A DNA stretch of 64,000 nt from an uncultured Methylomirabilota bacterium (GCA_963705305.1 OY970067.1:1568001-1632000); one strand, 5' to 3'; shown: positions 5,457 through 22,600, counted from the first letter of the stretch. Translations and numbers: made by a program. Notes: generated by a model not told the origin, from the letters alone.

Positions 5457-5606
5457 ATGCAACAACAGATCCACACGGCGTCTCGATTGGCCTGAAAAGG
5501 TCTCAGCCCTGATGAATCGGGTGGTTAGATGAGATGCTGCGGTGAAGTCTTCGCGTGGACACCGGCGGGAAACACCCGAGATATCGGAGCGGCTCCGATG
5601 GGTTGG
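5457..5606 (-). promoter_or_regulatory. sigma54 promoter cassette copy 1 (promoter + IHF-like site + tandem enhancer)
   Basis: Minus-strand TGGATCTGTTGTTGCAT (5457-5473; GG-N10-GC); AATCGGgtggTTA at 5515; CCGAgataTCGG-agcggct-CCGAtgggTTGG at 5576-5606. Confidence 0.85.
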
Positions 5607-5621
5607 AGGGGGAGGCGGAAC

Positions 5622-5712
5622 TCAGCGGGCACGCTGGAACCCGAGCGTCTCGATACGGGACGCGAGCGTGGTGGACTTGAGGCGGAGAAACGTGGCGGCG
5701 CCGGCCGGCTCA
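5622..5712 (-). pseudogene. C-terminal Fis-HTH remnant of the sigma54 activator
   Basis: Translates PAGAATFLRLKSTTLASRIETLGFQRAR* vs [28 protein letters not shown] at 20660. Confidence 0.8.
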
Positions 5713-7566
5713 CCCCTTCGAAGTCCCCACGGCAACAGGCTGCGCGGTTATCGGGCCGTCCCCCCAGAACCCCAGCAGCTCGCCCGCCCGGGTGTAGGCC
5801 TGCCGGATCCGGTCGAGGTTCTCCGTGAACAGGAGGCCGATCCTCGCGAACGGCTCGAAGACCGGGCCCTGCTCGAAGTTCACCGGGAGCGGGATCACCC
5901 GGGCCCACTTGTCCAGGTTGCCCTGGAGGGCGGCGGTCACGGCGCCCAGACGTTGCGACAGCTCCTCCTTGCCCTTGGCCGCCCGCTCTACGATGGGCGT
6001 GATGATCACGTCCACCGTCTGCTGCACGCGGTGCAGCGCGTCCACCACCGGCTCCGCCAGGGGGGTCACCCGGACGCCCAGCTCGTGCAGGAACTGCTCC
6101 AGGAGCCGCCCCAGGTCCTCCTGGATGAAGGCCTCGGGGACCGCCACGGCACCTTGGGCGCCCCGGCCGGCGCGCTGGCGCTCCGCGTACAGCTCCTGCC
6201 GGAGCCGCGCGGTGTGCGCCCGGTTCACCGGGTCCTTCCACCAGTCCCCCACCAGTCGCTTGGCGGAGAACCGGAGGGCGGCGGTGAAGAGGTCGCGTCG
6301 GAAGAGCGACTCCAGGATGGCGCCCCAGGAGTAGAACTGCTCGGTGGCCTGCATGGCCGCCATCTGCAGCTCGTAGGGAGCGATCCTGCGCGGCTGGTGG
6401 ACGCAGTGGTGCCCGTCGTACAGCTCCCAGTTGTTGCTGAGGATGTCCTTCTTGCCCTGGGCGTAGAGGGTGCGCCAGTCGGACGAGCCGGGGCACGGGG
6501 TGAGGATCATGAATTGGACGGATTCGATGTGGTTGGCGCGGGCGAATCGGGCCGTCTGGTAGATGGTCTCCACGTCGTCCTCGTCGGAGCCCACCACGAA
6601 CATTCCGTGGATCTTGATTCCATGGTCGTGGAACTTGTCGATGGCTCGCTGGATCTTGGCCAGGTCTTGCTTCTTCTTGAAGAGGCGCAGGGTCTTCGGA
6701 TTGATTGACTCGAAGCCGACGTAGACATTGAAGCAGTTGCTCCGGCGCATGAGCTGGAGCAGCTCGTCGTCGTTCACCGTCTCCGTGCGCACCTGGGCGC
6801 CCCACTTGGGCGTGATCCCCTCGGCGATCATGCGGGTCAGCAGGTCCTTGGTGCGTTTCGGGTTGGCGGTGAAGATATCGTCGGCGAAGAAGATGTAGGG
6901 GGTCCCGGCGTGGGTCTGTAGCTCGGCGATCACCCGGTCGATGGAATGGGTCCGGAACGCGCTCCCGTACATCCCGGGCACCGAGCAGAAGGTGCAGGGG
7001 AAGGGACACCCGCGAGAGGTGGCCACCGAGGCAATGCGCTGGCGCCCGTACCCCACCACCAGGGAGAAGTCCGGGATGGGGTTCACATCCAGATCGGTCA
7101 ACCTGGGCTGGTCCGGGTTGTGCGCCTTCTGGCCGTCGCGCCAGCAGGAGAGGCCCTGGATCCCCGCGACCCCCCGGCCCCGCTCGAGGGCCTCCGCGAG
7201 TTCCGGGAAGGCGACCTCGCCCTCCCCGCGGATCACGAAGTCGGCGTGGTCGAGGCCCTCGTCCGGCAGGAAGCTCACGTGGGTCCCCCCTAGGACCACG
7301 GGGATGCCGGCCGCCCGGACCGTGGCGGCCAGGCGGTAGGACGGTGGCGCGGTGGGGGTGATGGTGGAGATGCCCACGAGGTCCGCCGCGAGGACCTCCC
7401 CCATGTCCACGGGGGCGATGTCCTCGATGTAGACCTTCACGTCCCAGCCCCGATCCCGCATGATGGTGCCCAGAAGCACCGACCCCAGGCGGGGGATGGT
7501 GAGCCGACTGTACACGTGGAGGTGGGTCGACGAAGGCTCCACGAGGACCACCCGCTTCCGGTTCAT
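5710..7566 (-). CDS. Cobalamin-binding radical SAM protein
   Basis: N-terminal B12-binding domain (DLVGIST..PVVLGGTH..GEGE), CPFPCTFC cluster motif, FADDIF, GFESIN; extra ~150-aa C-terminal region. Confidence 0.93.
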   Translation of the reverse strand: MNRKRVVLVEPSSTHLHVYSRLTIPRLGSVLLGTIMRDRGWDVKVYIEDIAPVDMGEVLAADLVGISTITPTAPPSYRLAATVRAAGIPVVLGGTHVSFLPDEGLDHADFVIRGEGEVAFPELAEALERGRGVAGIQGLSCWRDGQKAHNPDQPRLTDLDVNPIPDFSLVVGYGRQRIASVATSRGCPFPCTFCSVPGMYGSAFRTHSIDRVIAELQTHAGTPYIFFADDIFTANPKRTKDLLTRMIAEGITPKWGAQVRTETVNDDELLQLMRRSNCFNVYVGFESINPKTLRLFKKKQDLAKIQRAIDKFHDHGIKIHGMFVVGSDEDDVETIYQTARFARANHIESVQFMILTPCPGSSDWRTLYAQGKKDILSNNWELYDGHHCVHQPRRIAPYELQMAAMQATEQFYSWGAILESLFRRDLFTAALRFSAKRLVGDWWKDPVNRAHTARLRQELYAERQRAGRGAQGAVAVPEAFIQEDLGRLLEQFLHELGVRVTPLAEPVVDALHRVQQTVDVIITPIVERAAKGKEELSQRLGAVTAALQGNLDKWARVIPLPVNFEQGPVFEPFARIGLLFTENLDRIRQAYTRAGELLGFWGDGPITAQPVAVGTSKG

Positions 7567-7704
7567 CTCGGACTCCGTGCTGGCGGCCTGCTCCGCGCCT
7601 CAGGGATCGGCTCGCACGGCACTGGGAACGCCGGGGCGCTCCTGTCTAAGCCGCGCAGGCCATGCGTGCGCACGCGCAGGGAGAGGCTCCTGGCTCGCGC
7701 CGAT

Positions 7705-7875
7705 TCAGTGCTGCCTGCTCTTCTCCTCGAGGTCCTTGCGCCCTTTCTCGGCGGTCCGGTACTCGCCAGTCATGGTGATGACGGACTTTTTGAGTGAAAG
7801 GACCTTGAAGTACCAGACACCCCCGCCTCCGACAACGAGCCCAATGAGGATTCCCAACCAGAAACTGCTGTCCAT
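7705..7875 (-). CDS. Small membrane protein (56 aa), not in ORF track
   Basis: MDSSFWLGILIGLVVGGGGVWYFKVLSLKK...; AAAGGAG RBS; single TM plus charged tail. Confidence 0.7.
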   Translation of the reverse strand: MDSSFWLGILIGLVVGGGGVWYFKVLSLKKSVITMTGEYRTAEKGRKDLEEKSRQH

Positions 7876-8001
7876 GGCATTCTCCTTTCATCCAACCAGC
7901 AGCGAGGTCACAAGGCTGAAAGGCTGGCCGCGCTTCATCTCCTTCATCTTGTTCATCTTGTGAGCGCTCTGGCCATCCAGGCGGCCTGGGAGTGGGACGG
8001 C

Positions 8002-8421
8002 CTACTTGCTGACCAACATAAGCAGCCTGGCACACTCGGAGGCCACCTTGCTATCGGGTGTCTCCTCACCGGGCATCGTCGCCCACCCCTGTTTTTCTAC
8101 GTACTCACTCCGCTGCCACGAATCTGTTTTTTCCAATTCTTTGAGCTTCTGGTCTTTCCCGGGATCCCGGTTGAACTGGACGACACACATCGGTGCCAGG
8201 CGCTTGACGACAGCATCTTCCGCCATCGTCTGCGCCATGCTCCGGGCGGTCCCCCCCGTCACCCATCCGCCCCACGCAAAGCCGATGATCATTGTGAGAA
8301 CAACAGAGCCAACCCATGACCAGAAGACGATCGTTTTCGTCGGGCGCGCCTCATCCCACCGCTGTCGAAGACTCAGCTTCCGCGTTTGTTCCCCGCCTCT
8401 ACCCCCCTTATCCTGCTCCAT
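8002..8421 (-). CDS. Hypothetical membrane protein (GGWVTG family), paralog of 22691-23104
   Basis: TM helix, GFAWGGWVTG, LAPxCVVQFNRDP, KQGWATMPGEE, two conserved Cys; GGAGGAG RBS. Confidence 0.85.
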   Translation of the reverse strand: MEQDKGGRGGEQTRKLSLRQRWDEARPTKTIVFWSWVGSVVLTMIIGFAWGGWVTGGTARSMAQTMAEDAVVKRLAPMCVVQFNRDPGKDQKLKELEKTDSWQRSEYVEKQGWATMPGEETPDSKVASECARLLMLVSK

Positions 8422-8752
8422 TGTTCTCCTCCTCCGTACGCCACGTGTTTCGACCGGAAACAGCCTTGGGGGTTGTGGTTGATCCAGGCAGATCGTGCAT
8501 TCCCTCCTCGCTGCACTCCTGGGAGTTCGCTCTGGTGCTGCTACGCAGGCACTCCCATTCGGTGCTGTCTGTAGTCCCCCGACTCCGCATCCAATGGCAC
8601 GGCAGGTGGCGATGCCTGCCGCCGCTCACCCAGGCGGCGCAGCTCTTCGCTGGCACGCGTGTAGGCGGCGACTGCGGAGTCCAACACGGCCTTCATCGAG
8701 GCCTCGGATCCCGCCAGGGGGCCGGTGCCGCTGCGGTATACAGGGTCCGCTC

Positions 8753-8989
8753 CTAGATGCTCGCCCAGAGCAGGCGCTGGGCGCCGATCACGAGGACCGC
8801 CCCGATGAACGCGACGACGACCGCCATGAAGAGCCCCGCGCCGGGAGAAACCCCCAGGGCCCGGAAGATCCAGCTTCCCAGGAGGCTGCCGACGAGCCCG
8901 AGGACGATGTCGCCGATCAGCCCGTAGCCGCCGCCCTTCATGACGAACCCGGCCAGCCAGCCGGCCAGCAGCCCGACGAGCACCCACAT
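8753..8989 (-). CDS. GlsB/YeaQ/YmgE (transglycosylase-associated) stress membrane protein
   Basis: VGLLAGWLAG..GGGYGLIGDIVLGLVGS..AFIGAVL; start could be a few codons upstream. Confidence 0.9.
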   Translation of the reverse strand: MWVLVGLLAGWLAGFVMKGGGYGLIGDIVLGLVGSLLGSWIFRALGVSPGAGLFMAVVVAFIGAVLVIGAQRLLWASI

Positions 8990-9229
8990 CGCAAACAGTT
9001 CCAGCGTCCTGGCCCTTCCTCCTTCACCGACTGCGCCGGTCTTCCCCCGGCCCCTCGCGCCGTCTCGCGGGAGGGGCCGCCCCTCCGGTCCGGGCCCCGC
9101 GACGCCCACCGATGGGAAGTGCCCAGCCCGGGCCGGCTGTGCCGAGGATGGGTGGGGACCGCCGTAGACGGCCCCCAGCCGCCCCCCGTACGCCGGCGGC
9201 TCCCTAGATCAACCGACCGGGCCCGACCG

Positions 9230-9805
9230 CTACTTGTCCTTGTGGCTCTGGAACGGCTCCTTCAGCACCACCTTCACGCCGGCGATCGTGCCCGTCACGG
9301 CGTTGCGCACCTGCGCCGCAGCCGCCGAGCCGATCTCGCCCGCAGCCTTGAGCGCCCCCGTCGCGGCGGCCGCGGCGGCCTCCTCCGCGCTCAAGCCGAC
9401 GGCTTTCGCGCCGGCGATCGCACCCTCGACGGCGCCCTTCGCCGCCGAGCCCAGGTCGCCGCCGACCTCGGCCGTGCTCTTGACCAGGGCGGCGGCGGTT
9501 GCGCTCACGGCGTCGAGCGCCTCGCCGCCGACCTCCTTGGTGCCGCGCAGCACGCCGATCACTGCCCCCTTGGCCGCGCTGCCGATGTCGGCGCCGATCT
9601 CGGTCACGCCCTGGACCACTCCGCGCACCACCGCCGAGATCGCCCCGGTGAGCGCCGCGCCCATCTCTCCGGTGCGCGTGACCGCGTTGACCAGGCTGCC
9701 GCTCACCGTGTCGACGACGGCGTCCGTGATCTCACCGACGCCCTTCACTGCGGAGACGATACTGTCCTTTACCGATTTCGCCAGGCTCTTGCTCTCGTCC
9801 GGCAT
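9230..9805 (-). CDS. Ala/Gly/Val-rich amphipathic repeat protein
   Basis: Repeated ~22-aa units (EIGADIGSAAKGAV, EVGGDLGSAAKGAV, EIGSAAA); strong GC3 codon bias. Confidence 0.8.
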   Translation of the reverse strand: MPDESKSLAKSVKDSIVSAVKGVGEITDAVVDTVSGSLVNAVTRTGEMGAALTGAISAVVRGVVQGVTEIGADIGSAAKGAVIGVLRGTKEVGGEALDAVSATAAALVKSTAEVGGDLGSAAKGAVEGAIAGAKAVGLSAEEAAAAAATGALKAAGEIGSAAAAQVRNAVTGTIAGVKVVLKEPFQSHKDK

Positions 9806-9999
9806 GGGAGGCCCCCTTTCTCAGACGATCCCCTGACTTGTGATGGGCCAAATCGCCTGCTGTCGGTTCGCGCCATCAGCGTACCCCCCCCGCGTCGTGG
9901 TGAGGGGGATCGAACACTACTCCATCTGGCCGGAAAGCCGCGGCCGGGCCAAGTCCGTTCAGGAGCGGGGCGGGGGAGTCCACGTCGCAAAGCTGACCC

Positions 10000-10287
10000 T
10001 GTCCGATACCCCGCGTGTCGAGACCGTCGTTACTTGGGCGATCCCTTGCTTCCCTGGGGCCGGCTTGGAGCGCGCTGGGAGTTCGGACTCGGCCAATATC
10101 GCCGACGCGGCGGTGCCATCTTCCGCACCGCTACGCCGTCCTTGGGGCTGGTGCGCGCACCAGCCTTCTCGTCCCGCCCGGCGTTCCACCCTTTGAAGCT
10201 GGCCTTCACGGCGCGGGTCCGTTTTTCCAGGTCGCGCTGGATGACCCGGCGCGCCTCTTCGTCGGAGAGCAATCGTTTGGCCGGCAT
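10000..10287 (-). pseudogene. Heavily decayed groEL 5' remnant
   Basis: MPAKRLLSDEEARRVIQRDLEKRTRAVK..KDGVAVRK matches [36 protein letters not shown]; another frame gives AEDGTAASAILA and SKPAPGKQGIAQVTTVS ([28 protein letters not shown]). Confidence 0.85.
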
Positions 10288-10379
10288 GATGCGGCCTCCT
10301 TCTCGATGTGTCGAATCAGCGTTGAGCTTGCCGCCAGGATTATCCTCGTCCTATCTATGCGGTGCGCGCTATTCATCCT

Positions 10380-10528
10380 ATGCAAAGATAGATCCAGCTT
10401 GCTCTCGGAGTGGCGCGAAGAGGTCTTGACGCAGCCGAATCGACTGATTGGATCGGACGCCAGGGTGAAATGTCAGCGGCCGGGGCGGCGGGACCACCCG
10501 AAATCTCGGAGCGGCTCCGAGATACTGG
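10380..10528 (-). promoter_or_regulatory. sigma54 promoter cassette copy 2
   Basis: Minus-strand TGGATCTATCTTTGCAT (10380-10396); AATCGActgaTTG at 10438; CCGAaatcTCGG-agcggct-CCGAgataCTGG at 10498-10528. Confidence 0.85.
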
Positions 10529-10544
10529 AGGCAGGGCCCAACGA

Positions 10545-10596
10545 TCAGCGGGGACGTTCGAGGCCGAGTTTCTTGATGCGGGATTCGAGGGTGGTG
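10545..10596 (-). pseudogene. C-terminal remnant of the sigma54 activator
   Basis: [16 protein letters not shown], identical in protein sequence to the end of the gene at 20660. Confidence 0.85.
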
Positions 10597-10769: not shown

Positions 10770-11465
10770 TCATGAGATCGCTCGGGCGATCAGGAAGGCC
10801 GCTCCCGCGGCCAGCCCGCCGATGAGCATCGTTTGAATGGAGCTCCGTACCGGAGCCGCCCCCGTGAAATGCCCTTTCACGTATCCGAATATGGCAAGGG
10901 CGAGCAGCGTGATGGCCACGGACGCCACGAGCGCCGTAGAGGCCTTCGGCTGGAAGATGTACGGCCCGAGAGGAATGAACCCACCACCGATGTACGCACC
11001 GGCGATCGTCACCGCGCTGCGTAGCGCGCGTTTCGGGTCCGGCTTCTCCAGCCCCAACTCAAATCGCATCATGAAGTCGACCCAGGCCATGGGGCGCTTC
11101 CGCATCGCGGCCACCACCGGCGTGGTCTCGTCCGCGGTCATGCCGTAGGTCGTCAGCACGTCGGCGACCTCCGCGGCTTCGGCGTCCGGTTTCTCCGTGA
11201 CCTCCATTTCCTCTCGGTTCCGTTCTGCCTGGTAGTGTTCGGCATCGCTCTTCGCGGCCAGATAGCCACCGAGCCCCATCGCTATGGAGCCTGCGGCGAT
11301 CTCGGCCAATCCCGCCGTCACGATGATCCGCGTGGTGTCAACCGCGCCCGACAGGCCCGCCGCAAGAGCAAACGGCACCGTCAAGCCATCCGCCATGCCA
11401 ATGACAATGTCGCGGACGGTTTCCGAGCCTGTGAAGTGGCCTTCGATATGCGGCGTCTGGGGCAT
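10770..11465 (-). CDS. VIT1/CCC1 family Fe/Mn transporter
   Basis: RDIVIGMADGL, AGSIAMGLGGYLA, MMRFELGL. Confidence 0.95.
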   Translation of the reverse strand: MPQTPHIEGHFTGSETVRDIVIGMADGLTVPFALAAGLSGAVDTTRIIVTAGLAEIAAGSIAMGLGGYLAAKSDAEHYQAERNREEMEVTEKPDAEAAEVADVLTTYGMTADETTPVVAAMRKRPMAWVDFMMRFELGLEKPDPKRALRSAVTIAGAYIGGGFIPLGPYIFQPKASTALVASVAITLLALAIFGYVKGHFTGAAPVRSSIQTMLIGGLAAGAAFLIARAIS

Positions 11466-11581
11466 GCCTGTCTCCGATCACGTCACGCTGATCTTCTGGG
11501 TTGGAGCTCCCTGGTAATTGATCTCAGGCGGCCACCGTCGCAACGTCTGCGCCTGCTGCAGCGCCTCCCGGCTCTTTTCGG

Positions 11582-12025
11582 TCATCCGATTTGGGTCCAT
11601 CCTCGGGCTTCCTCCTCGCGCCTGTGCATGTCGAGCACCACGTCCCCGGCCGGGGAGCGGCCGTCAGCTTCGGCCGGGAGTTCCGGCGGCGCCTCCGGAG
11701 CGCGGCTGAGCTCCTCCCGGAGGCGCTCGATCTCCCCCTCCATCGCCTCCAGCCGGCCCACGAGGTCCAGCACGATGCCTACGGCAACCAGGTCCACCCC
11801 GAGATCGCGACGCAGGCGGATCGCTTTGCGGAGGCGACCCACGGCCAGGACGGGGAACCGCCCAGTCGAGGCATTGCACTGCACCACGTCAACCTGGGTG
11901 TAGGCTTCCAGGGCGGCCGGAGGCAGGCCGCAGCGCAGGGCGAGGTCGTCTGCCGTGAGGTCGTCCGTCTCGTCCTCCACGATCGCCGCGATGTGAATCC
12001 GGATCTCGGCCTCATTGCACGCCAT
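11582..12025 (-). CDS. Chaperone modulator CbpM / MerR-like protein
   Basis: RLRKAIRLRRDLGVDLVAVGIVLDL; directly downstream of dnaJ; GAGGAGG RBS. Confidence 0.85.
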   Translation of the reverse strand: MACNEAEIRIHIAAIVEDETDDLTADDLALRCGLPPAALEAYTQVDVVQCNASTGRFPVLAVGRLRKAIRLRRDLGVDLVAVGIVLDLVGRLEAMEGEIERLREELSRAPEAPPELPAEADGRSPAGDVVLDMHRREEEARGWTQIG

Positions 12026-12069
12026 CAGCCTCCTCCTCTTCCCCCACGCTCCCGCACCCGCCGCGCCCG

Positions 12070-13071
12070 TCAGCGCCACTGGCGAGGGCTGTCCGGGGTC
12101 AGCCGGCCGACCTGTTCGAGCAGGCGGCGTTGCTCCTCCGTGAGCGTCGCCGGCAAGACGAGGCGGAGGCGCGCGTACAGGTCGCCCCGGCTCCCGTCTC
12201 GTCGGGCCAATCCCTTCTCGCGTAGCCGCAACCGCTGACCAGCCGAGGCGCCGGGGGACACCTTGAGCGTGACCGAGCCCTCCAGCGTCGGCACCTCCAC
12301 CTCCGTCCCCACGGCCGCCTCCCAGGGATACACCGGCAGGTCAATCTCGAGGTCGTCGCCGGAGATGCGGTACAGGCGGTGGGGCCGCACCCGCACCACG
12401 AGGTACAGGTCCCCAGCCGGGCCGCCGTTTCTCCCCGGCTCACCCTGACCGGCCAGGCGGAGCCGAGTGCCCCCTCGTGCGCCGGGGGGGATCTGGACTT
12501 CCAGCGTCCGTGGTTTCCCGATCTCTCCTTGCCCGTCACAGGCCTGGCAGGCCCGGTCCTTCGCGACGCCGGTTCCACCGCAGATCGGACAGTCCTCCGA
12601 GCCTTCGACCGTCACCGACCGGCGACCACCCCGGGTGGCCTCCTCCAGCTCCAGGCTCAGGTCGGTCTCGATGTCGCGGCCCGCGACCGGTTGGCGAGGG
12701 CGGCGTTGCCCTCGCGGGCGACCGAAGAGACTGGCAAAGAAGTCGCTGTAGGCGGCGCCATCCCCGCCGCCCAGGTCTCTGTATTCACCCCGTCCGTGGG
12801 GGGGCCCTTCCGAGGGCCGTGTGAAATCGCCCCCCGCCATCCCGTTCGGGCCGAGCTGGTTGTAGCGGGCCCGCTTGTCCGGGTCGGAAAGCACCGCGTG
12901 CGCCTCGTTGATCGCCTTGAACGCCTCCTCCGCCTGCGCTCGCGCTTTGCCGTGATGCAGGTCCGGATGGTGCTTCCGGGCCAGCCGGCGGTAGGCTGCC
13001 TTGATGGCGTCCGTTGAGGCGCCTCGGGACACGCCGAGCACCTCGTAGTAGTCGCGAAACTCGACCGGCAT
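12070..13071 (-). CDS. dnaJ: DnaJ/CbpA-type co-chaperone
   Basis: J-domain with HPD, two CxxCxGxG repeats, GDLY motifs in the C-terminal domain. Confidence 0.95.
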   Translation of the reverse strand: MPVEFRDYYEVLGVSRGASTDAIKAAYRRLARKHHPDLHHGKARAQAEEAFKAINEAHAVLSDPDKRARYNQLGPNGMAGGDFTRPSEGPPHGRGEYRDLGGGDGAAYSDFFASLFGRPRGQRRPRQPVAGRDIETDLSLELEEATRGGRRSVTVEGSEDCPICGGTGVAKDRACQACDGQGEIGKPRTLEVQIPPGARGGTRLRLAGQGEPGRNGGPAGDLYLVVRVRPHRLYRISGDDLEIDLPVYPWEAAVGTEVEVPTLEGSVTLKVSPGASAGQRLRLREKGLARRDGSRGDLYARLRLVLPATLTEEQRRLLEQVGRLTPDSPRQWR

Positions 13072-13079
13072 GGCGGTTC

Positions 13080-13643
13080 TTACCCCTCCCGCGCCCCAGG
13101 GCGCACCCCGTGCGACAGGCGGACCTCTCGCTCCCCGTCCTCCGGGGTCGACTGGGCCACCACGACCTGGGCCGGACGAAGGACTTCCCCGCCCAGAAGG
13201 AATCCCCGTCGGATCTCCGTCACGACAGTATCCGGCGGGTGGTCAATGGCTGGAACAGTCCCCACCGCCTCGTGGAGCCGCGGATCGAAAAGCGTCCCGA
13301 CGCCGGGGATGGGGACTGCGCCCAGGCTCGCCACAATCCGGCGGAGCTGCTCCGCGATCGCATCGACCCCCCGCAGGAAGGCGGGGTCGCTGGACCCGGC
13401 CGCCAGCGCGCGCTCCAGGTTGTCGTGCACCTCCAGGAGCGGTAGCAGAACCTCGCTCTGGCCCGCCCGGCGAGCGCCACCGGCCTCCCGTTCGGTCCGC
13501 CGGCGGAAATTCTCGAGGTCTGCCAGCGCCCGCAGTCGGCCCTGATGCTCGTCGGCTCTCGCCCGCTCCAACTCCGCGACACGCTGCTCCAGAGCGGGAA
13601 TGTCCGTATCTGTGGTTCTGGGGATGAGGGGAGCGTCCGCCAT
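13080..13643 (-). CDS. grpE: Nucleotide exchange factor GrpE
   Basis: ADLENFRRR, DNLERAL, FDPRLHEAV, VLRPAQVVV. Confidence 0.97.
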   Translation of the reverse strand: MADAPLIPRTTDTDIPALEQRVAELERARADEHQGRLRALADLENFRRRTEREAGGARRAGQSEVLLPLLEVHDNLERALAAGSSDPAFLRGVDAIAEQLRRIVASLGAVPIPGVGTLFDPRLHEAVGTVPAIDHPPDTVVTEIRRGFLLGGEVLRPAQVVVAQSTPEDGEREVRLSHGVRPGAREG

Positions 13644-13687
13644 GATGATTCTCCGGCAGACTCGCTGGGCTGACCCGGATCGCAGCC

Positions 13688-15550
13688 TCAGGCCACCTCA
13701 CGAAAGTCTGCATCTACAACATCGTTCTCGCCTTGCGGTGTCGCGTTCTGGGGGCGCCCGCGAGCCGTATCCAGCGCCGCGGCCGCTTGACGCAGGTCAT
13801 CGGCGAGGGTCCGGATCCGCGCGAGGTCCGCCCCCTCCTTCAGCGCGCGCCGGAGCTCGCTCACCAGCTGGTCGAGGCGGGCCTTCTCGTGCACGGGTAA
13901 CTGGCCCCCAACATCGCCCAGGCGTTGCCCCACCTGGTACGCCAGGGCATCAGCGGCGTTGCGGGTCTCTGCCTCCTCCCGTCGCTTGCGGTCCTCAGCC
14001 GCATGCGCCTCGGCCTCACGGAGCAACCGCTCGATCTCTTTCTTCCCCATCTGGGCGGTCCCAGTCACCGTGATCTGCTGCACCTTCCCGGTGCCGAGGT
14101 CCTTGGCGGATACGCTGACGATCCCGTTGGCGTCAATGTCGAAGGCCACCTCGATCTGCGGGCCTCCCCGGGCAGCCGGCGGGATCCCCTCCAAACGGAA
14201 CTGGCCCAGCGTACGGTTATCCCGCGCCAGCTCCCGCTCGCCCTGCAGCACGTGGATGTCCACGGCGGTCTGGTTGTCATCCGCCGTGGAGAAGGTCTGG
14301 CTCCGCCGCACCGGGATGGTGGTGTTCCGCTCCACCAGCTTCGTCAGCAGGCCTCCCAGGGTCTCCACCCCCAGGGACAGCGGCGTCACGTCCAACAGCA
14401 CCACATCCTTCATCTCGCCCGCCAGCACCGCCGCCTGAATGGCGGCACCCACCGCGACGACCTCGTCGGGGTTGACCCCCTGATGCGGCTCCTTGCCCTG
14501 CGTCAGCTTGCGCACCAAGGCCTGAACGGCCGGGGTCCGGGTCGCGCCCCCCACCAAGATCACCTCGTCGAGGTCCTGTGCGGCCAGCTTCGCGTCCGCC
14601 AGGGCCCGCTCGAAGGGCACCCGGCACCGCTCGACGAGGTCGGCCGTGAGCGCGTCGAACTTCGCGCGGGTCAGTTTCATCTCCAGATGCTTCGGCCCGG
14701 CGGCATCGGCCGTGATGAAAGGCAAACTGAAGGTGGTTTCCGGAACCGCGGACAGCTCGATCTTGGCCTTCTCCGCCGCCTCGATCAGTCGCTGCAACGC
14801 TTGGCGGTCCTTCCGGAGATCGATCCCTTGATCTCGCTGAAACTCCTCGGCGGTCCAGTCCACGATCCGCTTGTCGAAGTCATCGCCACCCAAGTGGGTA
14901 TCGCCGTTGGTGGCTTTCACTTCAAAGACCCCGTCGCCCACGTCCAGGATGGAGACGTCGAACGTCCCGCCCCCCAGGTCGAAGACCAGGATCGTCTCGT
15001 TCTTCTGCTTGTCCAACCCGTAGGCCAGCGCGGCAGCCGTCGGCTCGTTGATGATCCGGAGGACATTCAATCCGGCGATTTTTCCCGCGTCCTTGGTAGC
15101 CTGCCGCTGAGCATCGTTGAAGTAGGCCGGCACGGTGATGACGACGTCCTTCACCTTCTCGCCGAGGTATCGGGAGGCGTCGTCGACGAGCGCGCGCAGG
15201 ACCATGGCGGCGATTTCTTCCGGGGGGTATTCCTTGCCCCCAGCGCGCACCCGGACTGCCTCGCCCGGTCCGGCAACCACCCGGTACGGGACCAGCTTTG
15301 CCTCCGCGGGGATCTCCCCGAACAGCCGCCCGATGAAGCGCTTGATCGAATAGATCGTGTTCTCCGGATTCAGGACGGCCTGGCGCTTGGCGAGCTGCCC
15401 CACCAGCCGCTGCCCATCCTTTGCGAAAGCGACCACGGAAGGTGTCAGCCGGTTCCCTTCGGCGTTCACGATCACCATCGGCTTCCCGCCCTCCACCACC
15501 GCCACGACGGAATTGGTGGTCCCGAAATCAATCCCGACCGATTTGGCCAT
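13688..15550 (-). CDS. dnaK: Hsp70 chaperone DnaK
   Basis: [35 protein letters not shown] tail. Confidence 0.99.
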
Positions 15551-15740
15551 CTCGGCCCTCCTCTCCTCAAAGGTACCCGCGAGCGTTCAAAGGCTCGGGT
15601 CGCCAAAAGAGCCCGCCGTCGATGGCGATCACCAACGGGGCGGCCTGAACCCAGTCAGCTCTTCGACGCGCGCGCGAACCGTGCCTCCCTCCAACCAATA
15701 CGTTCCCCTGCGTGCGGATCTCGTGGCCGCGGCATCCGTC

Positions 15741-15878
15741 TTACCGGGACTCCGGCCGGCCGACGGCCACCGGCACCACCGCCATGGGGAAGATCACGGT
15801 CCCCCGCAGTGGCAGCACCGGGAGCGCACCCGGGATCGTGGGGCTGCTCGTCTAGGGATCCGAGTTCTCCGGGCTCAT
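15741..15878 (-). pseudogene. Lon protease N-terminal remnant
   Basis: MSPENSDP*TSSPTIPGALPVLPLRGTVIFPMAVVPVAVGRPESR*: Lon N-domain motif with in-frame stops. Confidence 0.8.
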
Positions 15879-15916
15879 GACCTGCGCTGCACCCTCTTTC
15901 AGCCCGTTTGTGCTCG

Positions 15917-15987
15917 TGTTCGGCATCGCTCTTCGCGGCGAGATACCCACCGAGTCCCATCGCGATGGATCCTGCGGCGATCTCGGC
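15917..15987 (-). pseudogene. Internal fragment of a VIT1/CCC1 gene
   Basis: AEIAAGSIAMGLGGYLAAKSDAEH, nearly identical to 11235-11307. Confidence 0.85.
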
Positions 15988-16051
15988 CGGCCCCGCCGAG
16001 ATGCACGGCCAGAGCGGGGCGACCCTTTCTCGGATCGGCCGAACGCCCCCT

Positions 16052-16388
16052 TCACAACCTCACCATCCGATAGAACATCCTCTTTGCCACCTCCGCCGAG
16101 ACAATGTATGCGATGATGACTCCCCCGATGAGCCCGAAATAGGAAATCGGCAGCTGGCGAAAGCCAAACACCGGTCCGAGCGGGGTGAAGGGGAAGATCA
16201 CCGTTGCGAGGAGAACGAAGAGCGTGGCCATGAACAGACTTGTCGACGGTCGACTCCTGAAGAAGGGCTTCCGACTTCGAATCACAAGCACAATCAACGC
16301 CGCCGACATAACGGACTCCATAAACCAGGCGGTCCGGAATTGATCCGGCGTCGCGTGCAGGATGAGCAACAGGACGCCAAAGGTGAGG
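16052..16388 (-). pseudogene. C-terminal fragment of a Mg2+-transporting P-type ATPase (MgtA-like)
   Basis: LTFGVLL..FRTAWFMES..VIRSRKPFFRSRPS..PFTPLGPVFGF..AEVAKRMFY; most of the gene is missing. Confidence 0.85.
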
Positions 16389-16424: not shown

Positions 16425-16763
16425 TCAGGAGCTCCCGCTCCGCCTCGGCATGCGCCAGCGCTGCAGCCGGCTGCCTGTGCGTCTGGTGACCGTATCGAAG
16501 TGAATCACGGGCTGCTTTTGCGACAGCTCGATCGCCGCCAGGACGGCGCGATAATCCTCGGAGCGTAAGCGGAGGAGCAGATCGGCCTGCGATTCCCACT
16601 CCTCAACCAGAGTAATGGCTTCTGAGTTTTCGACATCCTGGTAGAGGTCACACTTGCGGCAGCCCGGGAGCACACGCGTCGGCTCCAACTGGGCGGCGAG
16701 CGTCCGGACCACCTCGCCCCGGGACTGGGGCGCCGTCACGATTCGGAGGGTGGAAATAAGCAT
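16425..16763 (-). CDS. ABM (antibiotic biosynthesis monooxygenase-like) protein, 3' end replaced; paralog of 19910-20251
   Basis: TRVLPGCRKCDLYQD..LVEEWES; similarity to the paralog ends at FDTVTRR. Confidence 0.8.
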   Translation of the reverse strand: MLISTLRIVTAPQSRGEVVRTLAAQLEPTRVLPGCRKCDLYQDVENSEAITLVEEWESQADLLLRLRSEDYRAVLAAIELSQKQPVIHFDTVTRRTGSRLQRWRMPRRSGSS

Positions 16764-16778
16764 AGTCACTCTCCTTCC

Positions 16779-17075
16779 TCAGCTCGCCGGGGGATTGTCT
16801 TTATCGCTCCCGGAGCCGAAAGGCCGAGGGCAATCCCCGTGGAGTCCAAGACGTCTCGTCCACTCAGGCGCTGGGGGACGCACTCTCATGTTCACGGCCC
16901 GCGGTCCCTTGTCTCCCAACTCGACATCGAACTCAACGGCCTGCCCTTCCGCCAGGGTGTCGAATCCTCCCCCCTGGACGGCAGACCGGTGAAAGAAGAG
17001 CTCGAAGCCGTCCCATCCCTGGACGAACCCAAAATCTCGCTCCCGGACCAGCCTCCTGACCGTACCCGTTGCCAT
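16779..17075 (-). CDS. csp: Cold-shock domain protein with C-terminal extension
   Basis: MATGTVRRLVRERDFGFV..LFFHRS..KGPRAVN; paralog of 1184-1396. Confidence 0.9.
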   Translation of the reverse strand: MATGTVRRLVRERDFGFVQGWDGFELFFHRSAVQGGGFDTLAEGQAVEFDVELGDKGPRAVNMRVRPPAPEWTRRLGLHGDCPRPFGSGSDKDNPPAS

Positions 17076-17157
17076 TGTTGCTACTCCTCCCCGAACATCC
17101 GTCCGGATCTCATCGCGTTTCCACCCCCGATTCACCCCGATGCTCTGCGTATCTGCT

Positions 17158-19038
17158 TCACGCCTCCCGCTCCCGGCCGCCCTCTTTGGCTGGCTTCGCG
17201 CCGGCCAGCAGGGTTTGCAGCTCCTCCCCGTCCACCACCTCCTTCTCCAGCAATCGGTGCGCGAGCTGCTCGAGGAGGCTCCGCTGGTCCGTGAGGAGGG
17301 CCCCCACCTTCACGTGCGCCTCGGTGAGGATGCGGCTGGCCTCGGCGTCGAGGAGCCGCGCCGTCTCCTCGCTGTGCTCGCGCGGCGGGGCCAGGCCCGG
17401 GAGGAGGCCCGGCCGGCCATCGCCGTCGAAGGTCATCAAACCGACCTTCTCGCTCATCCCGTACTGGCCCACCATGTGCCGGACGAGATCGGTGGCCCGC
17501 TGGAGGTCGTTCTGGGCACCGGTCGAGACATCGCCAAAGATGATCTCCTCCGCCGTCCGGCCGCCCAGGAGGACGCACAGCCGGTTGAACAGCTCGGAGC
17601 GGGTCATCAGGTACCGGTCCTCCGTGGGGAGCTGCTGCGTGTAGCCTAAGGCTGCGATTCCTCTCGAGACGATCGAGATCTTCGCCACCGGGTCGGTCCC
17701 GGGCAGGCACGCCGCCGCCACCGCGTGCCCGGCCTCGTGGGTGGCCACGATCTCCCGCTCCCTCCCGCTCATCACCCGGGTCTTCTTCAGCCCGGCGACC
17801 ACCCGGTCGATGGCCTCCTCGAAGTCGGCCCGTCCGACCGCCGCCTTGCCCTGCCGGGCGGCCAGGAGGGCGGCCTCGTTCACGATGTTCGCCAGGTCCG
17901 CGCCCACAAAGCCGGAGGTCTGGGCGGCGAGGGCGGCCAGATCGACCTCCGGGGCCACCGTCACCCCCTTGGTGTGGACCAGGAGGATGGCCTCTCGCCC
18001 CTTCCGGTCCGGCCGGTCCACCAGGACCTGGCGGTCGAATCGGCCGGGCCGGAGCAGCGCCGGGTCCAGGATCTCCGGTCGGTTCGTGGCCGCCATGATG
18101 ATGACGCCCTTGTTGGTTTCGAACCCGTCCATTTCCACGAGGAGCTGGTTGAGCGTCTGCTCCCGCTCGTCGTGGCCGCCCAGGGGATTCATCCCCCGCG
18201 CCTTGCCCAGGGCATCCAGCTCGTCGATGAAGATGATGCTCGGCGCATGCTGCACCGCCTGGGCAAACAGATCCCTGACCCGTGCGGCGCCGACCCCAAC
18301 GAACATCTCGACGAAGTCCGAGCCGCTGAGGCTAAAAAACGGGACCTTGGCTTCGCCCGCCACGGCCTTCGCCAGCAGGGTCTTGCCCGTCCCGGGGACG
18401 CCGATCAGCAGGACCCCCTTCGGGATCTTCCCGCCCAGCCGCTGGAAGCGCTCCGGCGTCTTCAGGAACTCGACGACTTCGACCAGCTCGGCCTTGGCCT
18501 CCTCAATCCCCGCGACGTCGCCGAAGGTCACCCCCGTATCCTTCTGGACATAGACCTTGGCCTTGCTCTTCCCGATGGCCATGAGTCCGCCCAGTCCGCC
18601 GCCCCCGCCCATCTTCTTCATGGCGTACTGCCAGATGAGGAAGAAGAGCCCAATGGGGAGGAGCCAGCTCAGCAGCGTCGGGAGCCACGTGTTCGTCGCC
18701 TCGCCGCGGAAGTTCACATTGGCCTGCTGCAGGTCGTGAACAAGCGCGGGGTCGTCCACCCGGACCGTCATGAAGGGCTCCTCACCCGTCCCGGACTTGG
18801 TCAAGGCGTCGATGCGGGCCTTGGGGAGCAGCCCCGCGAGCCCGTCCCGGTTCAGGCGCCCCGTGATGATCTTCGCGCCGATCGCCACGTCGCTGATCTT
18901 CCCCTTCTCCAGCAGCGTCGTGAACTCGCCGTAGGTGAGGGTGTCGACGTGCGGCGCAAAGACGTAGTCCTGCAGCGCCATCAGGAGAAGGAACACGGCC
19001 AGAAAGTACCAGAGGGAGGCGATGTGCTTCTTGTCCAT
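17158..19038 (-). CDS. ftsH: ATP-dependent zinc metalloprotease FtsH
   Basis: Two TMs, Walker [24 protein letters not shown]. Confidence 0.98.
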
Positions 19039-19044
19039 GGCGTC

Positions 19045-19407
19045 CTATCCCTCCAGGAGGGCGTGTCCAGTCCGTTGCGCCATCCGGTGGCGGCAGACCA
19101 CGGCCTCGGGCTCCACCACGCAGACGCCGCCGCTTTCGGAGCAGTGCCGGCAGGAGAGATTCAACGGGTGGAAGTACCAGTAGCGCACCTCGACCCGGCC
19201 GTGGTGCCCGTCGGGGCAGAGATGGAAGAGGGGATCGGCCGCCAGCGCGGCGTCGGCGTCGCGCATCGCCAGGCCGGCGATCGCCAGCGTGGGCCACCGG
19301 CAGGGGGAGGGCGCGGTCTCCTTCAGGTTCTCGAGGGGGTCCGCCTCCCTCGGAATGACGGCGGTGCCGGGGCCGCTGCTCGGTTCGGTCTCACGTATCC
19401 TATCCAT
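19045..19407 (-). CDS. Cys/His-rich hypothetical protein
   Basis: GGAGG RBS, overlaps upstream gene end, CPDGHHG / CRHC / CRH motifs. Confidence 0.6.
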   Translation of the reverse strand: MDRIRETEPSSGPGTAVIPREADPLENLKETAPSPCRWPTLAIAGLAMRDADAALAADPLFHLCPDGHHGRVEVRYWYFHPLNLSCRHCSESGGVCVVEPEAVVCRHRMAQRTGHALLEG

Positions 19408-19696
19408 GTCCCGCCTCCATCTTCTGGTCTGTGCCGACTTTCGAGGGGGCCTGCGCCGCGAGGGGAGCCCTGCCGCTCCTCTCATGGTCTCTCTTCGCCG
19501 CCTCCTGGTAGGATTTCGAGCGATGGTCAGTGGTGTAGAAGCCCGACCCCTTGAAGAGGAGCCCGGCGCCTGCGCTGATCAGGCGGTCCACCTTCTTCCT
19601 GCAGTGCGGGCACCGCGTGAGCGGAGATGCCATGATACTCTGGAAGGCATCGAACCGACGCCCACAGGAGCGGCATTGATACTCATAGGTCGGCAT
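19400..19696 (-). CDS. FmdB-family zinc-ribbon protein
   Basis: MPTYEYQCRSC..CPHC..FKGSGFYTTD. Confidence 0.93.
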   Translation of the reverse strand: MPTYEYQCRSCGRRFDAFQSIMASPLTRCPHCRKKVDRLISAGAGLLFKGSGFYTTDHRSKSYQEAAKRDHERSGRAPLAAQAPSKVGTDQKMEAGHG

Positions 19697-19909
19697 TTAT
19701 CCGTTCTCCCGTAACTCCCCCCAGAGGTCGAGCCACCGCCCCGCCATCCGACACACTGAGGCGTGAGGGTCTCCCTCCTCGCTCCCCTGTGTGCCACGCT
19801 CCTCATCCTCCGGGCGATCTCTGTCTTCCGGGCGGTCGGCCTAGATCGTGGTACGCACTTCCTCCCCCCACTCGTTCGAGGGGTCTTCCTCACCACGTCG
19901 GCCGGGTCC

Positions 19910-20251
19910 TCACCGTGCCGCTTCGCGCCGCAACCCTCGGGCCCACTCGATCACCTCCAAGCCCGCGCGTCTGGCGACCGTGTCGAAATGGATCACGGGT
20001 GGCTTTTGCGCTAGCTCGATCGCCGCCAGGACGGCACAGGAACTTTCGGAGCCTAAGCGGAGGCGCAGATCAGCCTCGGATTTCCACTCCTCCACCAGCG
20101 TGATCGCCCCCTGGTTCTCGATATCGCGGTAGAGATCGCACCGGAGGCAGCCCGGTTGCCCCCGCGTTGGTCCCAGTTGCGCGGTAAGCGTCTGGACCAC
20201 CTCGGCCCGGGAGTGGGGTGCCGTGAGGATTCGCAGGGTGGAAATGACCAT
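19910..20251 (-). CDS. ABM-domain protein
   Basis: TRGQPGCLRCDLYRD..LVEEWKS; first gene after the sigma54 promoter at 20320. Confidence 0.85.
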   Translation of the reverse strand: MVISTLRILTAPHSRAEVVQTLTAQLGPTRGQPGCLRCDLYRDIENQGAITLVEEWKSEADLRLRLGSESSCAVLAAIELAQKPPVIHFDTVARRAGLEVIEWARGLRREAAR

Positions 20252-20319
20252 GGCCACAGTCGTTCCCTTTCGCTTGGATTGCCTCTCGGATGGAATCTCG
20301 CGTCCCTGTGGGATGGAAG

Positions 20320-20469
20320 ATGCAACAACAGATCCACACCAGGCGTCGGGGGAGCAGAGAAGGACTGTGCCCTTCGAAATCAATGAGTTCGCGACGATGC
20401 TGTGGCGGGACTCGAGGGGCCGGGCCGGTGGGAAACACCCGAGATATCGGAGCGGCTCCGACAGGTCGG
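20320..20469 (-). promoter_or_regulatory. sigma54 promoter cassette copy 3
   Basis: Minus-strand TGGATCTGTTGTTGCAT (20320-20336); AATCAAtgagTTC at 20378; CCGAgataTCGG-agcggct-CCGAcaggTCGG at 20439-20469. Confidence 0.88.
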
Positions 20470-20553
20470 AGGGGGAGCGGCACGTCGCGTTAGCGAGCGC
20501 AGCCTGCCCGCCAGAGGACGTCTCTTCCCGCTCTTCAAGGAACGGAGACTTGG

Positions 20554-20579
20554 CCCTTCGACAGGCTCAGGGCGAACGG
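20554..20579 (+). repeat. REP-like interspersed element
   Basis: CCCTTCGACAGGCTCAGGGCGAACGG; related copy CCCTTCGACTGGCTCAGGGCG at 59176-59196. Confidence 0.6.
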
Positions 20580-20659
20580 AATCGTAGGTGGCCTGCCCCC
20601 ACTAATTGATCCAACCGCATGGTAGTTCACACCGAACCATTGGAGGCGGGGCCAGCCGC

Positions 20660-22226
20660 TCAGCGGGGGCGTTCGAGGCCGAGCTTCTTGATGCGGGACT
20701 CGAGGGTGGTGGGCTTGAGGCCGAGCAGCTTGGCGGCTCCGGCCGGGCCGCGGATGTGCCAGCCGGTCTGCTCCAGCGCGGCCACGATCTGCGTGCGCTC
20801 GGCGTCGGCGAGGGTCGGTGGCGCGGCCACACTCGGGCCGGCGGTCGCCCCTAGCGGCACCCGGAGAGTCGAACCCTCGCTGAGGATGACTGCGCGCTCG
20901 ATCACGTTCCGCAGTTCCCGGATGTTGCCGGGCCAGGGGTAGCCCTGGAGCGCCGCCATCGTCTCCTGGGGGATCCGCTCCACGGGCTTGCCGAGCGCCT
21001 GGCCGAATTGCTTGGCGAAGGTCCAGACGAGCAGTGGGATGTCTTCCTGGCGCTCCCGAAGCGGCGGCACGGCGATCGGGAAGACATTCAGGCGGTAGTA
21101 GAGGTCCTCGCGGAAGGTGCCGTCCGCGACCCGCTTGGCGAGGTCCCGGTTGGTCGCGGCGATCACCCGGACATCCACCGTGAGGGTCCGGGTGCTGCCG
21201 ATCCGCTCCAGCTGCCCGTTCTCCAGGACCCGCAGCAGCTTGACCTGCAGCTCCAGCGGGAGCTCGGCGATCTCGTCCAGGAAGAGCGTCCCGCCGTGCG
21301 CCAGCTCGAACCGCCCGGCCTGGCGGGTCAGGGCCCCCGTATAGGCGCCCTTCTCCCGCCCGAACAGCTCGGCCTCGATCAAGGTCGGGGGGAGGGCCGC
21401 GCAGTTGACCGTGACCATCGCACGGTCCTTTCGCCGGCTCCGGCGATGGATGAGCTGCCCGAGCAGTCCCTTGCCGGTGCCGGTCTCCCCCAGCAGCAGC
21501 ACGGCGGTCTCGGTGGGGGCGACGTGGTCCGCCTGGGACAGCACCTGCTGCAGCGCCGGCGAGTTCCCCACGATCTCGCTGGGTTGCGCCTGGGCCGCCT
21601 CGCGCAGATAGGCGTTCTCGGCCTCGAGCTGCTGTTTCAGGCGCGTGGCATCGTCCAGGGCGCGCCGGAGCGCCTGCTCGCTCCGCTGGCGCGCCAGGGC
21701 ATTGGCAAAGATGTCCGCCAGGAGCTGCAGGCGCTGCACCAGGACGTTCCGGCCACTCGCGCTCGGTCCGGAGCGTGCCGAAGGAGAGCGCCCCGAACAC
21801 CCGCCCGCTCGCGGCCAGCGGAAAGATCAGGTTGGACTTCTGGTGGATCTTGCGGAAGGAGACCTGGTCACGCGTGGCCTCGGGGGGGAGCTCCGCCAGC
21901 GTCGCGAAGCGCACGGTCCCGCCCCGCAGCAGCGTCTGATGCACCCAGGGGAAATCCCGGATCGCAAAGAGCCCGGGCTGGGCCGCGAAGTCCGGCACGG
22001 CCCAGGCGTGTGTGATGACCAGGTCGTTCTCCGCCTCCGCCCGCTGCAGGAGGGTGCTGCGGTCCACCCCCAGCGCCTCGACGATGCGCCGCTGGGCCTC
22101 CTCAATCAGCCGGTCCACCTGCTCGGCCGGCACGTGGACGAAGCGGGCCGAGAGGTCGGCGAGAAGCGCCTCGAACCGCAGCCGCTCCTCCAACTCCGCC
22201 CGCAGGCCCTCTTCCGCCCGGGTCAT
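20660..22226 (-). CDS. sigma54-dependent activator (GAF-AAA+-Fis HTH, FhlA-like) with one frameshift near 21745
   Basis: N-terminal GAF-like part in one frame; [34 protein letters not shown] and HTH in another. One extra base at ...ccggaa c gtcctggtg... Confidence 0.92.
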
Positions 22227-22450
22227 GGCGCCACCCGCCGAGGGATGTGAAATTCGGGTAGTACCAAGATCCACACCTATTCGCTCTCCGCGCCGAGACA
22301 CCGTCACCACAGTTCGTCGCGACGGCACCTTACCCTGAAATTAGACCACAATAGCCTTAGTGCATTCAACCCAATTCAACCACCTCGCGGCGATGGCGTT
22401 GGCCGCGTCCCCTCTCTGCAGTGCGCCGCCTCTCCACTCCCCCTCCCCGT

Positions 22451-22600
22451 CCGATCCTTCGGAGCCTCTCCGATATATCGTGCGATTCCCGTCGCGATCT
22501 CCCGGGAGGCTTCATGCCGGCATCACCCCCCAACCGTACGATTCAACGCGACGGACACCTCCTGAGGCCACGGGAAAGCCAAATGGATTCGGCCTTGCAT
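22451..22600 (+). promoter_or_regulatory. sigma54 promoter cassette copy 4 (divergent from activator)
   Basis: CCGAtcctTCGG-agcctct-CCGAtataTCGT (22451-22481); IHF-like site at 22531-22543; TGGATTCGGCCTTGCAT (22584-22600). Confidence 0.85.

Follow-up and report, generated by a model that had tools for sequence, protein, structure and literature searches.

Four copies of a ~150-bp cassette stand before differing groups of genes, chaperone genes among them, in a 64,000-nt stretch of DNA from an uncultured Methylomirabilota bacterium (GCA_963705305.1, OY970067.1:1568001-1632000). What does this cassette do, which protein reads it, and which genes does it serve? We refer to the whole stretch as the window and count positions from its first nucleotide. 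An initial annotation had read each copy as a sigma54 promoter preceded by a tandem dyad and by a box like that of integration host factor (IHF), and had placed a chaperone and stress island under a GAF-AAA+-Fis activator encoded between copies 3 and 4. Our analysis suggests that the cassette is probably a sigma54 promoter joined to its enhancer, and that the copies make up an island-borne regulon of general-stress type under an FhlA-like activator, spread by duplication of the flank downstream of the activator gene.

Anatomy of the cassette

The four cassettes lie at the coordinates and on the strands that the annotation had given.

5457..5606, minus strand: cassette 1; dyads 5606-5595 and 5587-5576, IHF-like box 5527-5515, sigma54 box 5473-5457, predicted start ~5447
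10380..10528, minus strand: cassette 2; dyads 10528-10517 and 10509-10498, IHF-like box 10450-10438, sigma54 box 10396-10380, predicted start ~10370
20320..20469, minus strand: cassette 3; dyads 20469-20458 and 20450-20439, IHF-like box 20390-20378, sigma54 box 20336-20320, predicted start ~20310
22451..22600, plus strand: cassette 4; dyads 22451-22462 and 22470-22481, IHF-like box 22531-22543, sigma54 box 22584-22600, predicted start ~22610

Each cassette carries two 12-bp dyads, TCCGA-N4-TCGGA, whose starts are 19 nt apart. The predicted tandem dyad is thus present in all four copies, but its details differ: the 7-nt linker, read in the promoter direction, is AGCCGCT or AGCCTCT, copies 1 and 2 start with CCAA/CCAG, and copy 4 ends in TCGT. 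The sigma54 box reads TGGAT(C/T)-N5-TTGCAT, and the distance from the end of the dyads to the T of its TGG is 102, 101, 102 and 102 nt in cassettes 1 to 4 (102-103 nt to the GG), in keeping with the fixed spacing first proposed. Half-way between dyads and promoter lies an AT-richer IHF-like box (AATCGGGTGGTTA, AATCGACTGATTG, AATCAATGAGTTC and AATCGTACGGTTG in cassettes 1 to 4, on the strand opposite the promoter), which ends 41, 41, 41 and 40 nt from the promoter, close to the 41-42 nt first noted. The box has a conserved AA..TT and fits the IHF consensus, WATCAA-N4-TTR, in part. A search of window positions 1-30000 against Rfam gave no match to a structured RNA. A sigma54 promoter with an enhancer is textbook architecture (PMC7175178, in its accessible text).

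The source genome (G000, a single contig of 5.65 Mb) holds eight cassettes in all, of which four lie outside the window at 363376 (minus strand), 367851, 953886 and 3358487 (plus strand). A joint dyad-plus-promoter matrix, whose training set includes these eight sites, found eight sites in G000 and none in each of three block-shuffled genomes, and a scan with the dyad pattern found eight sites against none for the reversed control. The cassettes are therefore confirmed as a real feature and not a product of chance. Their spacers have diverged, as had been noted, yet remain related, with 45-71% identity over the 28 pairs. Cassette 3 had no match among 72,556 plasmid records, which gives no sign of spread by plasmids.

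Pairing of the cassette with an activator family

Within the order, eight of 66 genomes have an orthologue of the activator (at least 72% identity), and all eight belong to a single genus. A cassette sequence model, built from 25 cassettes of these carriers, matched nine of the 151 genomes of the class, namely the eight carriers and one further genome, G013. Dyads with at most one mismatch were present in the same nine genomes, and seven other genomes had two-mismatch sites only. With the cassettes aligned, a matrix built and genomes scanned, as the annotation had advised, motif and fixed spacing were seen to co-occur with activator orthologues. A strict search for the full pattern returned nine of 251 genomes of the phylum (seven carriers and two genomes of another order), with no control matches.

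We catalogued 73 cassettes in fetched loci of eight genomes (23, 17, 11, 8, 7, 4, 2 and 1 per genome), counting about two weak second readings and leaving out nine further model matches without a clear dyad or box. In G005, G010 and G006, most cassettes lie inside islands of ~90-125 kb. The GG and GC of the promoter, 10 nt apart, are kept in 66-67 of 67 cassettes (G66 G66 ... G67 C67), and two dyads end 99-104 nt before the sigma54 box in 67 of the 73. An independent pattern scan of metagenomes that allowed gaps of 98-106 nt found 121 loci; among the 80 listed, the gap was 99 nt in one, 100 in four, 101 in 27, 102 in 43 and 103 in five. Positions outside the search pattern were also conserved over 75 distinct metagenome spacers, with the first half-site TCCGA kept in 72-75 and the A, A and T of the IHF-like box in 63, 74 and 69 of the 75. 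Two dyads have promoters at 100-102 nt to either side, as would be expected of an enhancer.

A second line of independent support is a related layout at more distant activators. In five of 30 such FhlA-like genes the stop codon is followed, after 6-13 nt, by tandem dyads and then, 97-103 nt further on, by a sigma54 box, the dyads reading CCAA..TCGT/TTGG, CCCA..TGGT/TGGG or CCGA..TCGG. One of the five comes from another order of the class; its N-terminal region differs, and its dyads are the exact CCGA-N4-TCGG pair. The loci at which variant tandem dyads directly follow the stop codon of a distant FhlA-like activator are L010, L011, L042, L314 and L315. The cassette model itself gave nothing convincing on 53 distant-activator loci. 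Dyad-only matches in 12 of 40 genomes of other phyla were dropped, as none of the 16 loci examined had a sigma54 box 90-115 nt away.

The source genome has a single rpoN (E 2e-61) and four HU/IHF genes, not assigned to subunits. The HTH (helix-turn-helix) recognition sequence KPTTLESR occurs in two of the 29 activator loci of G000, both of them copies of this activator gene. Taken together, the co-occurrence, the layout within the family and the presence of rpoN give good support to the proposal that the cassette, read as a sigma54 promoter preceded by activator sites and an IHF-like box, is cognate to the neighbouring GAF-AAA+-HTH activator family.

The activator gene and protein

The activator gene lies between cassettes 3 and 4, as annotated, but is frameshifted in this assembly, and an intact twin is found elsewhere in the genome.

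20660..22226, minus strand: FhlA-like GAF-AAA+-HTH activator, window copy, split by one extra base near 21747
20632..20643, minus strand: first dyad left over from the cassette of the activator itself, separated from cassette 3 by 162 nt of other sequence

The GAF part and the AAA+-HTH part of the window copy fall in different reading frames. The twin (G000 366269-367834, plus strand) encodes an intact protein of 521 aa and is identical over 1,599 nt save for the one extra base of the window. This base is absent from the spanning contigs in three of four runs; in the closest run, X1, the single contig lacks it and shows no other difference. Because the twin is identical, the run contigs fit a true frameshift and an error of assembly equally well. 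Should the gene in the window really be broken, G000 would draw its activator from the intact twin.

The intact protein has the Pfam domains PF01590 (GAF), PF00158 (sigma54 activator) and PF02954 (HTH_8), and GETGTGK, FLDE and GAYTGA (the Walker motifs and the GAFTGA-type loop) are conserved in 36 aligned relatives. In the same alignment His73 of the GAF domain is invariant, and the domain has no conserved Cys. Its fold matches phytochrome-type GAF domains (Z ~19-20, root-mean-square deviation 2.4-3.3, 158-181 aligned residues, 9-17% identity), a match that does not indicate the ligand; the single-sequence fold is poor, with a predicted local distance difference test score (pLDDT) of 45, and the AAA+ part of the full activator model lies below 50. 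The NCBIfam model of FhlA, NF011958, scored 374.9 bits, below the equivalog-level cut-off of 830, and aligned with residues 189-519 of the 521, while the NifA and NorR models ended at 451-454; among the top three models, only that of FhlA reaches through the HTH. By these profile matches the activator is FhlA-like, and not FhlA itself.

Probable origin and spread of the cassette

Behind the intact activator gene the cassette begins 16 nt past the stop codon. Decayed 3' ends of activator genes were found before cassettes 1 and 2.

5621..5708, minus strand: decayed activator 3' end before cassette 1, 81% identical at the nucleotide level over 88 nt
10526..10596, minus strand: decayed activator 3' end before cassette 2, 89% over 71 nt

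A tblastn search of the regions upstream of 143 cassettes (30 rows, of which two were off-register and removed) placed activator 3' ends upstream of 28, eight of them decayed stubs. The variant layout past the stop codons of distant activators, together with the stubs before copies 1 and 2, suggests that the promoter spread via duplication of the activator's downstream flank. Among 41 cassettes with a 102-nt gap, column identity was 0.50 in the spacer, against 0.87 in the dyads, 0.91 in the promoter and 0.71 in the IHF-like box, with columns picked from the consensus. This indicates that the copies share descent and are old, and that the motif has been kept.

Some parts of the islands are far more alike. 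Two islands 1.2 Mb apart share three collinear blocks that are 100% identical (window 2374-4625, 8775-9973 and 20632-22230, against G000 373139-370888, 370787-369589 and 367862-366265). These blocks of 1.2-2.3 kb hold groESL, the genes for a 191-aa protein and GlsB/YeaQ, and the activator; their ends are sharp and near gene boundaries, and their flanks are unrelated or 70-76% alike. Either gene conversion or assembly collapse may account for them. In G006, three activator copies are 99.7-99.9% identical to one another, and with the identical blocks this may reflect either ongoing exchange between islands or, again, collapse during assembly.

Genes behind the cassettes

The genes of the island within the window are arranged as follows.

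2418..5301, minus strand: after cassette 1; a 66-aa unknown, a ferritin/rubrerythrin-like 158-aa protein (an atlas lead), groES and groEL
5710..10287, minus strand: after cassette 2; a groEL 5' remnant (10030-10287), a 191-aa unknown, a GlsB/YeaQ transglycosylase-associated protein (8753-8989), a GGWVTG membrane protein (8002-8421), a 56-aa protein and a B12-binding radical SAM protein (5710-7566)
10770..15550, minus strand: dnaK, grpE, DnaJ/CbpA-type, CbpM/MerR_2-type and VIT1 genes, tied to cassette 3 through read-through only
15655..16369, minus strand: gene remnants (cation ATPase, VIT1 and lon) that separate dnaK from the second ABM gene
16779..19038, minus strand: ftsH (17158-19038) and a cold-shock-domain gene (16779-17075)
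19045..19696, minus strand: a zinc-ribbon protein, presumably FmdB-like by its motif, and a 120-aa unknown
19910..20251, minus strand: ABM-fold protein with an invariant CxxC, first gene after cassette 3; second copy at 16425-16763
22691..23104, plus strand: GGWVTG membrane protein of no named family, after cassette 4

Across the genus, co-oriented open reading frames (ORFs) start 37-702 nt downstream of 65 of the 73 cassettes. The genes concerned differ from cassette to cassette, and the commonest among 149 downstream ORFs are BON (10), ABM (9), the GGWVTG membrane protein (9), GlsB/YeaQ (8) and DUF3309 (8+5). Next come groEL, a ferritin-like protein, ftsH, groES, CsbD, OmpA, YtxH, DUF948, YflT, entericidin, DUF3096, PRC-barrel, dodecin, desaturases and squalene-hopene cyclase; a B12 radical SAM protein is also among the putative targets, and the stress-marker families were identified by Pfam. 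Most first genes are of general-stress type (BON, GlsB/YeaQ, DUF3309, CsbD, YtxH, YflT) or unknowns, with BON first six times, GlsB/YeaQ four times and DUF3309 eight times. Behind the eight cassettes of G000 we found BON and GlsB/YeaQ, and no CsbD, YflT or YtxH. BON/OsmY, YeaQ/YmgE and CbpA-CbpM are RpoS genes. As far as the accessible texts go, csbD, yflT, ytxG and ytxH belong to the SigB core set (PMC7824861), and csbD and ecnAB to an EcfG regulon (PMC7083833). The fdhF, hyc/hyf and hyp families were absent from the scanned representatives of the 149 ORFs.

The GGWVTG membrane proteins (22691-23104 and 8002-8421) belong to no Pfam or NCBIfam family, fall in unnamed atlas clusters, and stand behind cassettes in seven of the eight carriers. 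The ABM-CxxC gene comes first behind the activator-linked cassette in five of the eight; its CxxC is invariant in 11 of 11 sequences and present in 97 of 150 homologues, and the protein is a candidate redox partner or feedback element.

The annotation had assigned the whole chaperone set of the island to the activator, and this holds in part. In seven genomes a cassette precedes the island groESL by 0.5-3.5 kb, and in four one precedes ftsH by 1.0-2.0 kb; on this placement both are well-supported as predicted targets. The dnaK gene lies behind a cassette in two genomes, at 4.8 kb in G000 (past cation ATPase, VIT1 and lon remnants) and at 1.6 kb in G005, and grpE-cbpA-cbpM of G006 is 12.8-14.4 kb from the nearest cassette. 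In the window, dnaK to VIT1 lie 4.8-8.8 kb from the cassette 3 promoter, behind gene remnants, and could be reached via read-through alone. Scans for internal promoters and terminators between cassette 3 and dnaK stayed at chance level (two sigma70-type sites against 1.1 expected). Only weakly, then, may dnaK-grpE-cbpA-cbpM-VIT1 be counted as targets. A chaperone is the first intact gene behind none of the 73 cassettes, and a groEL 5' remnant stands behind two. The predicted regulon is broader than the chaperone control first envisaged.

The annotation had also set the activator in place of HrcA or HspR, and this part of it was not supported. G000 has hrcA, with CIRCE (controlling inverted repeat of chaperone expression) boxes at hrcA and at the housekeeping groESL (586091, 2708670), and an operon dnaK-hsp20-hsp20-dnaJ-hspR whose HspR scores above the cut-off. 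No CIRCE box precedes the island groESL or dnaK, and no HspR-associated inverted repeat was found in window positions 1-30000. A tree of 21 full-length GroEL sequences of the genus, with 10 partial sequences left out, has two clades (supports 96/91 and 98/97). CIRCE lies upstream of groEL in nine of ten members of the housekeeping clade and in none of ten of the island clade. With HrcA/CIRCE and HspR at the housekeeping chaperones, the island holds second copies.

Proposed mechanism and alternatives

We propose that two activator dimers bind the tandem TCCGA-N4-TCGGA sites, that IHF bends the DNA half-way between enhancer and promoter, and that a signal sensed by the GAF domain would lead the AAA+ ring to open the sigma54 closed complex ~100 bp away. 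The cassette would at first have been the promoter directly behind the activator's stop codon; flank duplication would then have spread it, and older operons would have been captured. The resulting regulon, of one to ~22 promoters per genome, would comprise membrane and small proteins of general-stress type and second copies of groESL and ftsH, and would sit atop the ordinary HrcA/HspR heat-shock system.

Several observations weigh against this proposal. The cassette model derives from the eight carriers and its matches there are partly circular; its absence from the 142 other genomes of the class is not, though many of these are incomplete. The carriers, all of one genus, are kin and not independent cases, and the fixed spacing may partly reflect common descent (spacer identity 0.50). 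In G013, which is 95% complete, a single cassette lies close to the end of a contig, behind an apparent decayed activator tail, and no activator was found. The activator of G010 is in five frame pieces, and 25 of the 30 distant FhlA-like homologues have no such layout past the stop codon. The string lipoprotein-(GlsB/YeaQ)-ftsH-csp-66aa-(ferritin-like)-groESL, with groEL of the island clade, occurs in G003, G012, G014, G019 and G020, five genomes that lack both activator and cassette. The targets therefore either predate the cassette or are independent of it, captured in some lineages or released in others. Many targets are cassette-free in these five genomes of the genus, and gain and loss look alike here. 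One group-2-like sigma factor of G000, below the RpoS, RpoH and SigB cut-offs, could run a separate general stress response, and the label of general stress would follow from gene families, not from induction.

Three other explanations have to be set beside the regulon proposed here. Were the copies mostly by-products of recombination or assembly in unstable islands, conserved since recent, and only the copy next to the activator functional, one would expect the identical blocks, the near-identical activators of G006 and the many remnants and stubs; the spacers of the eight copies, however, are only 45-71% identical while the motif positions are fixed, the 75 metagenome spacers behave likewise, and 65 of 73 cassettes face gene starts, so that we regard this explanation as highly unlikely. 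The view that the activator takes the place of HrcA/HspR as chief regulator of chaperones and drives the whole island including dnaK-grpE-cbpA-cbpM-VIT1 draws on the groESL, ftsH and G005 dnaK genes behind cassettes (the last a separate gene), on the lack of CIRCE at island-clade groEL genes, and on the stretch from cassette 3 to dnaK, where no other sigma54-type or notable sigma70 site was found. It is quite improbable given that HrcA, two CIRCE boxes and HspR accompany the housekeeping copies, that grpE-cbpA-cbpM of G006 is so distant, and that a chaperone never stands first.

A narrower regulon is also conceivable, in which one particular stimulus, such as redox or low oxygen sensed via ABM-CxxC or GAF, controls envelope-remodelling genes and the stress markers are island passengers. 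The position of the ABM-CxxC gene and its conserved cysteines point this way, as do the desaturases, squalene-hopene cyclase, B12 radical SAM protein and OmpA among the targets. BON, GlsB/YeaQ and DUF3309 are repeatedly the first gene, unlike passengers, and the GAF domain lacks a conserved Cys, which makes this explanation unlikely. A bolder form of the general-stress proposal holds that in this lineage a true general stress response, elsewhere the task of RpoS, SigB or EcfG, is run by a one-component sigma54 activator, which built its own regulon through the copying of its downstream enhancer-promoter, up to ~22 times per genome, with the stubs as the record; we offer it tentatively and consider it possible but doubtful.

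To our knowledge, general stress responses are the work of alternative sigma70-family factors. If our proposal is correct, the same marker genes under a sigma54 activator would show that general stress can be met in another way, and would do so in a phylum where gene regulation has hardly been studied. It would also be an unusually legible case of regulon growth, with source, copies and leftover stubs all visible, and the 150-bp module, together with its activator, might be put to use as a tight orthogonal switch.

Comparison with known systems

The annotation had linked the motif to no characterised regulator, but it shares the 14-bp A-N4-T geometry of the FhlA site. In the accessible text of PMC7658346, enterobacterial FhlA is likewise a GAF-AAA+-HTH enhancer-binding protein, with a 14-bp palindrome of A-N4-T core, two sites per promoter and a TGG-N8-TTGC box. 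The FhlA site given there, TGWC-RAWRAT-GWCA, agrees with TCCGA-N4-TCGGA only in length and in the T..A-N4-T..A frame. The FhlA model has 692 positions against the 521 aa and single GAF of the activator, and FhlA targets formate hydrogenlyase, unlike the predicted stress-type targets here. The cassette motif is best read as a family variant of the FhlA-type site.

PexR of Myxococcus xanthus, as far as the accessible text describes it, resembles the activator in its single GAF, signalling helix, AAA+ and HTH and in having tandem palindromes ahead of the sigma54 promoters that serve stress genes; it has a CACCG-n6-CGGTG site in at least three repeats, a His/Cys/Asp metal centre for peroxide and a small regulon, katB and ahpC (PMC12754779). 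Here, by comparison, there are two sites, a GAF domain without conserved Cys and up to ~22 promoters. The SigB (PMC7824861) and EcfG (PMC7083833) regulons, from the accessible parts of both papers, share the marker families CsbD, YflT, YtxG/DUF948, YtxH and entericidin. Those regulons are read by alternative sigma70-family factors, whereas the promoters here are of sigma54 type with an enhancer, confined to islands and to part of one genus.

Predicted sigma54-type promoters before groES, groEL, grpE, dnaK and dnaJ have been described in Bacteroidota and Planctomycetota (PMC12316311). The accessible main text names no cognate activator or enhancer and does not mention Methylomirabilota, NC10 or Rokubacteria; here, only second chaperone copies are concerned. 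Putative mobile promoters, according to the accessible text of PMC3575422, likewise consist of one promoter duplicated before unrelated genes. Copies of that kind are highly similar. In the present case the unit is a whole 150-bp enhancer-IHF-sigma54 module, the copies are old (45-71% spacer identity), and the source, the activator's 3' flank, is visible as stubs. The accessible text of a Desulfovibrio regulome (PMC4641369) contains neither CCGA nor groE, and those of PMC13101641 and PMC4371752 hold nothing on this system. In a literature search with most subscription journals and supplements outside its reach, we found no account of the motif, of Methylomirabilota sigma54 regulons or of a general-stress set run by sigma54.

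Other genes in and around the islands

The cassette-free ftsH-csp-groESL operon (L306-L310, from G012, G014, G020, G003 and G019) opens with a 95-106-aa protein of no Pfam family, which is also encoded at window 1710-2027. Genes that we take from their sequences to be KaiC-KaiB-KaiB-like lie inside islands beside activator copies (L027 11907-13935 in G006; L029 7185-10184 in G005). A 2,910-aa GH94/glucoamylase protein of the cyclic beta-glucan synthase type is encoded at a left island end (L025 2104-10836), and a group II intron reverse transcriptase lies between two cassettes in the second island (L021 11661-12953). Just outside the window's island, a Fur/PerR-family regulator and a katG catalase-peroxidase (23896-26619) have a sigma70-like site of their own (23839-23867) and were excluded from the regulon. 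About 10 kb to the right of cassette 4, a tyrosine integrase and a small unknown ORF (window 32018-33810) may mark the boundary of the island or of another element.

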